A stretch of 64,000 nt of DNA from contig OZ287073.1 of the NCBI GenBank assembly GCA_965645245.1, forward strand, positions 1,488,001-1,552,000, given 5' to 3'. Numbering within the stretch: the first letter of the stretch is position 1; every line of letters starts with the position of its first letter. The notes under the pieces were generated by a model, which ran no database searches, had not been told where the DNA came from, and saw only the letters and a program-made list of their open reading frames with translations. Source of the stretch: Massalongia carnosa. Lineage: Eukaryota. Positions 18,423 through 21,778 of the stretch are shown one piece after another. The position numbers and the translations under genes were made by a program.

Positions 18423-19343
18423 ATCCTCTTTCGTGTAATTTTTCAAGACGAATCATGAGGCGAAATGAAAAAGCTTGAGATTTAAGTCTTCTTTTAAGTC
18501 AGTCGTGTCGTCGAAATATCAAAAGATATTGTAGATTTAGAACCTTATCAGAAGACGGAAATTTTAAACAAACTTATCTTCTCGCACACGCGTTTTGCAC
18601 TTAAGGATTCATTCAACTTTTTCAGAGCAATTCATATGATCATCATGGAGCAACTCTTATAAAGTCTGTGTTCTACTCGTATCGAATTAAGCATGAAGTC
18701 AATGACTGTGAAAATATCGCCGGCTGAATCTACAAATAATTCCTTCGCTTTGTTTATCCAATTGTCATATGATTGACTCTTGATCACTTTAAGCTCAATA
18801 CTTGACATTTTTCACTTCCTCAAATCGTCATTGAGAATTCGATTAAAGATGCTTCACAATGTCGCTAGCCTTCGAGGATAAAGAGCTCGTATTGAAAAAG
18901 TCTTCGACATCGTGAATGTGACGGTTCAACCAGGATGTGGAATTGACTATCTACTGGGAAGCTATGCACTAGAAAATATCAAAGATGCAGAAAAGAAACA
19001 AGCAAAGGGTGTCCTCTCTAGGAGTCTATATAGATAATCGCTTGGCCCGATCCAGCTGCTTGTGTCTTCATCAATAATTGAACAGTTTGGTCAAACAGTC
19101 TTTCTGTCCTTTGTCCCTTTCATCCATTTGTATTTGCTTCAGAAGGTCGTTCCAATGCGTCCTTTTCAGTCCTTTCAGACCTCCGTTGATTGCCCCTATG
19201 ATTGCTTGATGGTGACCACCTACGGTTTCGGTAGAGGGAAATAAGGTTTAGCGTCCCGGAGCTTTCGGTCCCTATGACCGTCCAATCCACCGCTAAAAGG
19301 GTGAGTAACGGAAGCGGTTAGTGCGCCGGCAGATGCGCCTTGG

Positions 19344-20679
19344 CACGCGGGTGAAAAAAAAAGGGCAAGGTGAGCCGAAACTCCCCCACCAAAAATTACC
19401 TCCCCTTTTCCTTCCCCATTTTCTAACATTTCAAATGCCATCCCACTACGATACACCTCAAAAGGCCAAGGTGCAGAGAGCTTATGAATTTCTTCTTGCA
19501 ATTTTGCAAAAGGCATTTCCATCGATCCTCGAGAGATTTTTCAGCATTTTGGCATTCGAAGCGAGAGACAGGGCCATAAGATCATTCGAAACGGAGCATC
19601 TTTTAGAAGAAGACATCATTCAACGCTCGTTGAGACAAGCGGTCGCAAATCAAAAGTCACGGAAGCACAAATACAGGAGGCAGATCACATTCTACAAGAT
19701 GAGGGGCTACAGTTGGAAGGAAAATGATACACATGGGAACAATTGGCTATGGAGATTGGGGCCGACGTTGTCGGTCGTACAATGCACAATGTTATGTCGG
19801 CTGCTCTAAACTATGAGAAATGTCTGGCCTGCGTCAAGGGATGGCTGGCCGACCCACCTATGGAAAGACGGGTCAAATTTGCTCACATGATGCTAACCAG
19901 ATATCCCAAACCAGAGCAATGGGATCGCGTACGATTTAGTGATGAGATTCATTTTGGATATGGGCCGGAAGGACAGTTACGAATCATTTGTCAGCCCGGA
20001 ATATGATATCGTTGGGATTGCATAGAGCATCGTGACCCGCCTCCTGAGAAAGATCGAAAACGAAAACATTGCTGGGCTGCAATTGGCTACAATTTCAAGT
20101 CGGATATTATCTTTTATGACGTGCCGGGCAACAGCAATGGTAAAATGACTCATCAGGTGTATATTGAATCCGTTCTTGACCCCGTCGTCAAGCCCTGGCT
20201 GGAGCGTGGGGATGACTTCGTACTTGAAGAAGATGGAGACTCTGGTCATGGCACGAGCAAGACAAGAAATGCCGTCAAGAAATGGAAGGAAGATCATCAT
20301 TTAGAGCATTATTTCAATTGTGCCTCATTACCTGATTTGTCCCCTATAGAAAATTGCTGGCAGCCAGCGAAGCAGCATGTTCGAAAGTATCCTCATTGGG
20401 ACGATGTCAGCTTGAAGAAGCTGATTAGGGATGGATGGGAACGGGTGACGCAGGAATTCATCAATGAAAGAGTTCGATCAATGCCCAAACGATTGGAAGA
20501 GGTAATTAGGGCTGAGAGGGCGATGACTGGCTATTGAATAGAATGTATGTAGAATTTCAATGGTCATACGAATTGAAATGTTGAATGGGGAAGAAGATGG
20601 GGAAGAAAAAAGGGAAGAAAAGGGTAAGTTTTGGTGGGAGAATTTCGGCTCACCTTGCCCTTTTTTTTTCACCCGCGTG
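19344..20679 (+). mobile_element. IS630/Tc1-like DNA transposon with CACGCGG ends and 5-bp TSD
   Basis: 37-bp identical TIRs CACGCGGGTGA9GGGCAAGGTGAGCCGAAA extending imperfectly to ~57 bp; direct repeat CTTGG at 19339-19343 and 20680-20684. Confidence 0.93.
19435..20537 (+). pseudogene. Tc1-type DDE_3 transposase (DD38E), inactivated
   Basis: WDRVRFSDE, FVLEEDGDSGH, SLPDLSPIENCW; 8-nt insertion near 19500 and TGA stops at 19725 and 20004. Confidence 0.9.
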
Positions 20680-20707
20680 CTTGGGTGGATGTGGTTGAAC
20701 CATGACA

Positions 20708-21778
20708 TGAGGCATAAAAATATTACGACCGTTCTCGTTGAGAATGTGCCTCAGGCACCACGATACATTTATGGAATCACGCTTCATCTATTGGCTTATC
20801 CGTCTCTTCTAAACAGTTTAGGAATAGATCATACAACATTTCGGAAGCAGTTAGGGGTTACAGCCCCTAACAGCGCAATGGAGAGCCAGTTTACAGACTC
20901 AAATTCAATGGTGGTTGAGACTGATCTTGTATCTTTTCGATGTCATCGTGGCAAATTGGAAAGGCTGCTCCAAGAAGACCAACTGATAAGATGGGGAAAT
21001 GAGGTTAGAGAAGTCGAGACAGCTGCTGAAAAGATAGCCCTGCAGCTGAAGAATGGGAATATCATTAAGGCAGCATTTTGATTGGAGCCGACGGTGTTCA
21101 TTCCCAGATTCGCAGGTTATTGGCACCTGAGATCGAACCCAGAATACTACCATATGTTGTCTTCATTGGCAAGCGACGTATGGAAATTGGTATGTATCAA
21201 GAGATCTATGCACCGTATATGCAAGGCTTCACTAAACTCGAGACACGATACTATGACACATAAATGGAAATCTCCATTAATGAGCATAATGCAACAAACA
21301 TTACCCTAAGCTACACATATTCGCGTCCTGTCCGTTACAACGACGCACATCATAAGCCCAACTGGGCCATTACGGGAGCAGCTGATATACCAGAAGAGTT
21401 CTATGACGAAGTAGCAGAGCTTAATGAATTAACACAGCCATTCAAAGAGGTTTTTGATAGTAAAAAATCCGTCAAGACCGTCATCTTCTGCACTGGTTAA
21501 TGCGAAGTCTCTTGGTCAGTCCCACTGATATAGTAAGCCTTGCAAGTCGGGGAGTGCTATTAATCGGTGATGCCGTCCACGCAATGCCAACACTTGGTGG
21601 CGAGGGAGCTAACCTAGCGATCAAAGATGGGTTTGATTTGCCAGAACATATCGCCGCCAATGGTCCCCTAGAGATCAAAAGCTTCTCTATGGCTAGATAT
21701 GACAGCTGGAGAGTGACTGTTGAAAAGACTGAGAAAAGACTAACTGAGATGCACGAGCCGACCGCGTTCTCTATATAG
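20708..21778 (+). pseudogene. FAD-dependent monooxygenase pseudogene
   Basis: YGITL, HRGKLERLL, IGADGVHSQIR, LLIGDAVHAMP..GGEGANLAIKD motifs in three frames; frameshifts near 21078 and 21465, TAA at 21261; 5' end cut by the LTR. Confidence 0.88.

Follow-up and report, generated by a model that had tools for sequence, protein, structure and literature searches.

Transposons of the Tc1/mariner type normally duplicate the dinucleotide TA when they insert, and their transposases are typically of the DD34E or DD34D type. Here we consider an element of 1,336 bp (positions 19344–20679) in a stretch of 64,000 nucleotides from Massalongia carnosa (contig OZ287073.1, positions 1,488,001 to 1,552,000 of the forward strand; the window is this whole stretch), which carries a Tc1-type transposase gene but is flanked by a duplication of 5 bp. 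Very likely, the family of this dead copy is autonomous and forms part of a distinct, widespread clade of Tc1-type transposons found in filamentous ascomycetes, whose members duplicate 5 bp and excise in the Tc1 way.

The elements of this clade share with the Tc1 family (Sleeping Beauty SB100X, Tc1 and the fungal impala) a DDE_3 domain, a C-terminal helix, an SPDLxPIE motif and an excision footprint of the 3-nt type. A single transposase open reading frame (ORF) between terminal inverted repeats (TIRs), in an element of 1.3–2.4 kb, characterizes the family, and a single ORF of 364–367 amino acids between TIRs is what the clade has, in elements that measure 1.27–1.41 kb where they were tabulated and about 1.25–1.45 kb overall (~1.3 kb is the size shared with the Tc1 family). 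The differences lie in the 5-bp duplication, in the G+C-rich core of the target, in the TA located one base outside each cut and in the spacing from the second D to the E, which is 37–43 residues in the 51 relatives where it was counted, instead of 34. Since TA duplication is absent clade-wide (0/59 elements of the same genome, 0/29 metagenome relatives, and the empty site, see below), the clade works like a Tc1 transposon but is not a canonical member of the family.

Duplication length is changeable within the ITm group: where the text is accessible, recent papers treat TA as the norm and name two exceptions, Zator/TP36 (3 bp) and Sailor (TATA) (PMC10045372, PMC8533490, PMC7325037). The latter two are separate superfamilies, whereas the present clade lies among TA-type Tc1 elements. 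The Tc1-derived Intruder family (DD38E/IT) has the same DD38E signature as the window copy, but it is described from animals only, with a length of 1.5–1.7 kb (accessible part of PMC7731502), and is placed among TA-duplicating families (accessible part of PMC8533490), whereas the named hosts of the clade are fungi, its spacing varies and its duplication is 5 bp. This comparison with Intruder is by description, and the shared DD38E is most likely convergent. As for fungi, hupfer from Beauveria bassiana is an IS630/Tc1-like element of 3.3 kb (1.25–1.45 kb in the clade) with 30-bp TIRs; its duplication is either TA or 5 bp, the latter being the length mentioned in the first-pass annotation of the window.

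Outside the ITm group, Transib/RAG1 resembles the clade by its CAC ends and its 5-bp, G+C-rich duplication, and some Transib families are described as preferring cCAWTGc (accessible part of PMC1131882). Its transposase, however, belongs to an unrelated superfamily, and the footprint of the clade retains element bases.

The five-base duplication, its target and its footprints

The window element is bounded by perfect 37-bp TIRs (19344–19380 on the + strand and 20643–20679 on the − strand), the left one reading CACGCGGGTGA and then an A-run; inside both, an imperfect inverted match continues inward, and more matched blocks are found further in. CTTGG is present on either side (19339–19343 and 20680–20684, + strand), as the first-pass annotation had stated along with the TIRs. 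The host of the insertion is a solo long terminal repeat (LTR, 18917–20707) of a Ty3/gypsy-like retroelement, uninterrupted copies of which (L032 and L034) read ...GATGCGC-CTTGG-GTGGATG..., with the same neighbouring bases and with CTTGG once, not twice. Exactly 5 bp were therefore duplicated at the window site, and the empty-site comparison proposed with the annotation speaks for it.

In the genome of M. carnosa (52 Mb, 25 contigs), exact CACGCGGGTGA ends occur 235 times and the reversed pattern 4 times. In the final tabulation, for which loci were chosen non-randomly, by similarity or listing order, and whose pattern a few elements escaped, an exact 5-bp duplication flanks 43/59 two-ended elements (31/46 in an earlier, smaller tabulation); two have 4 bp, 14 have none and not one has TA. 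By family, the exact 5-bp duplication is found in 13/20 copies of family A (which includes the window copy), 18/20 of the young family B, 6/7 of family K and 6/12 of the others. By chance, a 5-bp match between unrelated left and right flanks occurs in 20 of 6,844 pairs. Copies of family A are 97–99% identical in pairwise comparison and 4/16 have an ORF of at least 355 amino acids; in family B these values are 98–100% and 10/20.

Among 80 metagenome loci, an anchored pattern identified 31 distinct elements with TIRs, 29 of them with both flanks: the duplication is exactly 5 bp in 17/29 and TA in none. The loci L064 and L085 also show 5-bp duplications. The ends of the metagenome relatives begin with CAC, CAA or CTC. 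The 5-bp duplication is a clade-wide trait. The tabulation of copies had been suggested at the outset as a check on the 5-bp reading: copies flanked by TA appear in neither sample, while copies without a 5-bp duplication do exist, as a minority.

The symmetrised target, established from 43 sites, reads T(0.60) A(0.56) N C(0.50) C(0.49) W(0.84) G G N T A, that is, a loose 11-bp palindrome TA-N-[CCWGG]-N-TA, and the duplicated bases are 64% G+C. TA is found at −8/−7 in 82/235 ends, versus 12/235 at the control position −10/−9 (Fisher p 9e-17), and at the same offset in 18/60 metagenome ends, versus a background of 5.6%. C is nearly missing at −7 (2–4%). The TA is a preference and not a requirement, because TA is missing from both sides of 19/43 sites, including that of the window. 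In one repeat, families A and K inserted at an identical base (L019:2748, L022:2772, L026:1500, L307:1649), which makes it a target hot spot.

The genome also contains traces of excision. Among the 22 sites of the form TA-N6-CACGTG-N6-TA, six show CACGTG framed by an exact 5-bp direct repeat and two more by a repeat with a single mismatch, whereas none of the 18 sites with the control spacer GTGCAC has an exact repeat; compared to a background of 0.25%, the footprint rate gives p 2e-11. Two footprints can be checked against paralogues: at L322, the paralogue L240 is without exactly those 11 bp, and at L022, GCAAC-CACGTG-GCAAC stands beside a re-inserted element while paralogous sites hold GCAAC once. 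CACGTG consists of the first three and the last three bases of the element. Sleeping Beauty (SB) and Mos1 are described as nicking 3 nt inside each end and leaving overhangs (accessible parts of PMC7827188 and PMC5481204). Footprints in which CACGTG separates two copies of the target-site duplication (TSD-CACGTG-TSD) agree with Tc1-type cutting 3 nt inside the ends, and the staggered excision 2–3 nt inside the ends, with end bases left behind, that characterizes Tc1 elements is reflected here in the footprints, on the understanding that CACGTG is compatible with 3 or 4 nt, because a 4-nt overhang joined via CG microhomology yields the same CACGTG. These footprints and the target preference TA-N-[CCWGG]-N-TA are what is new here.

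Seven further footprint candidates are without paralogues, and GTG at L021, CGTG at L293 and TG at L294 are unconfirmed one-sided candidates. The matches to TA-N-CCWGG-N{0,4}-CCWGG belong mostly to another repeat and, with a spacer of zero, direct and inverted arrangements number 4 and 4. A high-copy repeat containing TACCCTGGGGGCCAGG is found at many places in the genome and is probably the end of another transposon family. The alignment of four contig sets to L028 gave no empty allele and no informative joint.

A few other arrangements were noted among the copies. At L007:1501, L044:1602 and L051:1603, the duplicated 5-mer is separated from the end by two extra bases (CA or TG), which may stem from abortive excision and repair. 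MITEs (miniature transposable elements with inverted repeats) of 243–248 bp have the same ends and 5-bp duplications (L060:301-548, L010:197-439, L238:2647-2894), and at L143 a TA-type Tc1 element is nested within one such 5-bp-type MITE. Tc1-type elements of different families are often tens to hundreds of bases apart (L018, L025, L030, L052, L237, L238, L257).

The transposase and its relatives

The transposase of the clade matches Pfam DDE_3 with 42.2 bits (cut-off 28.6). Its sole clear sequence match in the PDB is Sleeping Beauty SB100X (5cr4; E 2e-20 with a profile), and the first fold matches of an AlphaFold model (mean predicted local distance difference test score 83) are Mos1, SB and SETMAR; the model also predicts two N-terminal three-helix blocks. 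As regards the paired-type helix-turn-helix domains expected at the N-terminus of a Tc1 transposase, PF01498 is present in some relatives, but neither P0002 (the intact sister protein encoded at L002) nor P0001 (family B) matches it. In the ESM Atlas, only Tc1-like clusters are found, and they are nameless. The first-pass annotation called the element Tc1/IS630-like, and only the first half of this label stands, the NCBIfam IS630 model giving 47.6 bits for a cut-off of 100. Matches in prokaryotic genomes are partial only (best E 1e-18 at 28%) and a search of viral contigs with the transposase returned no match; together with the IS630 score, this rules out a prokaryotic or viral origin.

The annotation also described the element as DD38E. 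There are indeed 38 residues separating the E from the second D in the window copy, but in the 51 of 58 relatives that have an intact triad this spacing is 37 (23 relatives), 38 (18), 39 (2), 40 (4), 41 (3) or 43 (1), and some more distant members of the clade have 34. DD38E therefore does not define the group, and it was discarded as a marker, a TA-duplicating relative in the same genome being DD41E.

Homologues of P0002 number 393 at E ≤ 1e-5, the named ones coming from Pyrenophora, Bimuria, Clathrospora, Botrytis, Rutstroemia and Colletotrichum, and a profile search at E ≤ 1e-30 returned 486 cluster representatives. The clade is multi-copy in Pyrenophora tritici-repentis (14 contigs) and Botrytis deweyae (7). 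In public records of P. tritici-repentis and Rutstroemia, two of its proteins (P0063 and P0087) are labelled "HMG box protein", which is a propagated mis-annotation; others are hypothetical.

TA-duplicating Tc1 families of the same genome served as a comparison. TA precedes the ends in 14/22 cases for L237 (DD41E), 15/15 for L242 (DD34E) and 2/2 for L143 (DD34E). Like the clade, L237 and L242 carry the motifs CxxC and YCxDC as well as a TIR with a GGGTGA box, but the three families duplicate TA, mostly in GTAC, have kept KP[FL] and WPP motifs, and the TA type has 7–8 nt from the tip to the box instead of 5.

A maximum-likelihood tree with 67 rows and 244 columns was calculated from the catalytic region, five other rows having been dropped (four too short and one badly aligned). 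All 17 rows labelled as 5-bp fall within one 56-row clade, with an ultrafast bootstrap (UFBoot) support of 100 and a Shimodaira–Hasegawa-like approximate likelihood ratio (SH-aLRT) support of 99; two of these labels are weak, C_L018b resting on a family member and I_L257 having one mismatch. The three TA rows are outside, L237 (DD41E) being the nearest with a known duplication. The DDE phylogeny suggested with the annotation is thereby obtained in part: it separates the clade from the TA families of the same genome, and its rows do not include Tc1, impala, hupfer, IS630 or Zator. The broader claim, a fungal Tc1-type lineage with changed target cleavage, is supported by the copies, the empty site, the relatives, the tree with its TA controls and the footprints.

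What may set the stagger

The transposase of about 365 amino acids, with two putative N-terminal helical DNA-binding domains and an RNase H-like DD(37-43)E domain, would pair the TIRs and excise the element in the Tc1/mariner style, so that about 3 nt of each end would stay behind as TSD-CAC-GTG-TSD. The two 3' ends would then be joined to target phosphates that are 5 bp apart, not 2, and repair would therefore duplicate 5 bp. The preferred target is rich in G+C at its core, where the central pair is weak, and has a TA step one base beyond either cut; in the complex, the two ends may be kept at a distance of 5 bp while the target bends at the two TA steps, 9 bp apart, which would act as bending or reading points. 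For comparison, Mos1 is described as bending its target by 147 degrees at TA and flipping the adenines (accessible part of PMC5481204), and SB as using P247 and K248, right after the second Asp, to shape target choice (accessible parts of PMC8934666 and PMC6943129).

The wider stagger may result from changed target-contact loops together with a TIR tip that is shorter, by 2–3 bp, than that of two TA-type relatives. The second Asp is followed in the 5-bp clade by D-S-G-H plus an insertion of 3–9 residues, where SB has D-P247-K248-H, and at the positions equivalent to SB 246 and 248 it pairs D with G, which is absent from the pairings (D/K or A/other) given in the accessible part of PMC6943129. 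The clade also has a conserved NGKM loop, KGW-type linker residues in place of KP[FL], and YFNC in place of the WP motif. In the window copy, the loop after the second catalytic Asp (DGDSGHGT..RNAV, 20232–20276, + strand) aligns with the place of D244-N-D-P247-K248-H in PDB 5cr4 and is a candidate target-contact surface; its conservation was checked in 58 relatives. As for the TIR, the first base of its GGGTGA box is position 6 in the 5-bp families but 8 or 9 in two TA families, a shift by which the 3' ends would be turned with respect to the DNA-binding domains.

We tentatively propose, at somewhat less than even confidence, that this is an undescribed clade of family rank in which the stagger of a Tc1 transposase was re-gauged from 2 to 5 bp in one evolutionary step, TA recognition being kept but displaced outward (each subunit reading its own TA one base beyond the cut), and which, given its CAC-like ends and G+C-rich 5-bp targets, has converged on the behaviour of Transib/RAG.

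Several observations speak against the main interpretation, that of a Tc1-type clade with a 5-bp duplication. The 14/59 elements without duplication include 7/20 of family A, the window copy's own; at least some of these copies seem to have been rearranged once inserted (L301 and L313 lie on different contigs, yet 93 bases upstream of them are identical; L313 and L315 lie 14 kb from each other, and GTTAG stands at the right end of both, in opposite orientation). An exact 5-bp duplication is lacking in 12/29 metagenome elements; one of these (L090:668-2024), a clade member, has an exact 7-bp duplication, CCCAGGT, a single case. The tree includes no named reference elements, and 39/56 of its clade rows lack confirmation as 5-bp. 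Against the 18-site control, the footprints reach a Fisher p of only 0.019, and one of the six is of low complexity (TGTGT). The lack of TA at nearly half of the sites has been mentioned above. The TIR tip was compared with only two TA families from one genome. A long Gly-rich loop after the second Asp is also present in the TA-duplicating DD41E family, and the CxxC/CxxC pair is common to TA relatives too; loop length alone and the Cys pairs are therefore ruled out as the cause of the 5-bp stagger.

Other explanations differ in how much they leave of this interpretation. We give practically no credence to mis-drawn ends (a 38-bp TIR with a 3-bp duplication, the length seen in Zator) or to a repeat that pre-existed in the LTR. 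For the window copy alone, a 3-bp duplication TTG would be an equally good fit, since the bases at its flanks, G and C, complement each other, but copies flanked by AGTGG, AGAGC, CGAGT and CCTCA duplicate five bases, only half of 106 ends have G as the next base outward, exact 3-bp duplications are found in 0/59 elements, and the single CTTGG of the empty LTRs argues against a pre-existing repeat. It is also highly improbable that a Transib/RAG-type enzyme moves elements that merely carry a Tc1 gene. The CAC ends and the 5-bp duplications with 64% G+C do resemble what is described of Transib (accessible part of PMC1131882); however, the TIRs of each family pair with its own Tc1-type ORF, which is intact in 10/20 copies of family B, many relatives begin with CAAG or CTCG and not with CAC, the footprints keep element bases as in Tc1/mariner, and no Transib is reported in the accessible part of a survey of fungal genomes (PMC5751038). 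No RAG or Transib structure is among the fold matches listed, and sequence and fold searches return Tc1/mariner proteins.

Two further explanations accept the 5-bp duplication. It may be, although we lean the other way, that the clade and its duplication are already catalogued, as hupfer of Beauveria or as fungal Mariner entries in Repbase, so that only the target consensus and the footprints would be new: members are multi-copy in genomes as well studied as those of P. tritici-repentis and B. deweyae, and repeat curators will have met them. Yet the literature search, which did not extend to Repbase, most subscription journals and supplements, turned up no fungal Tc1 clade described as duplicating 5 bp; the Pyrenophora genome paper and those on Epichloe MITEs, Sordaria, the Paracoccidioides Trem elements and S. 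osmophilus show no matching family in their accessible main text; the recent ITm papers cited above name no exceptions to TA other than TATA and 3 bp where they could be consulted; and the annotations of the clade proteins read "HMG box protein" or hypothetical. A less likely possibility, which we consider doubtful, is that DNA shape and the geometry of the TIRs, not changed protein contacts, determine the stagger, the short tip rotating the 3' ends apart and targets being accepted when they kink at two TA-like steps 9 bp apart. The position of the GGGTGA box, a TA that is preferred but dispensable, and the description of Mos1 as deforming the target rather than the protein (accessible part of PMC5481204) are in its favour, but several motifs that face the target change jointly at the clade's base, the near absence of C at −7 looks like specific read-out, and the tip comparison covers two families only.

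If our proposal of a re-gauged Tc1 transposase is true, the TA-type sisters in the same genome and the intact young copies form a natural pair in which to find the determinant of duplication length in DDE recombinases, and the clade would provide an integrating vector that prefers G+C-rich targets. Since there are near relatives of both types and intact copies, the question of what sets the stagger of DDE transposases becomes testable by swaps. In the Mos1 structure, TA specificity comes from one sharp bend and base flipping, while here the same fold would cut 5 bp apart around a G+C-rich core with TA outside. Because TA duplication serves as a defining mark of Tc1/mariner in classification and in annotation pipelines, the 5-bp clade will likely escape notice or be mislabelled.

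The damaged copy and its surroundings

The transposase gene of the window copy (19435–20537, + strand) is broken, whereas it encodes 364 amino acids in intact sisters such as L002/P0002. Its DDE_3 match has an E of 5e-9, and the codons of the catalytic triad are those of D at 19941–19943, D at 20232–20234 (in EEDGDSGH) and E at 20349–20351 (in SPIE). The alignment with three sister copies reveals an 8-bp insertion (19496–19503, + strand); the copy is dead because this insertion shifts the frame and, downstream, the translations contain in-frame TGA stops at 19725–19727 and 20004–20006. The region of the insertion (19496–19508) reads TTGCA-ATT-TTGCA, a 5-bp repeat around three bases which are not those of an element end.

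The 5' part of the solo LTR (18917–19338, + strand) starts with TGTGACGGTTCAACC and has 73 matches in the genome; its 3' end (20685–20707, + strand), delimited by comparison of inverted pairs and of LTR copies, ends with TGGTTGAACCATGACA. Copies of this LTR have TG..CA ends and their own 5-bp duplications, and at L319 two direct copies flank an integrase ORF. The flanks of the solo LTR in the window, GTGAA (18912–18916) and TGAGG, show no duplication. On the right, the flank (20708–21081) runs into a fragment of a FAD-monooxygenase-like gene (Pfam FAD_binding_3 at 21464–21775), whose 5' end is seemingly missing. The mismatch between the LTR flanks and the truncation of this gene probably result from a deletion or from recombination between LTRs.
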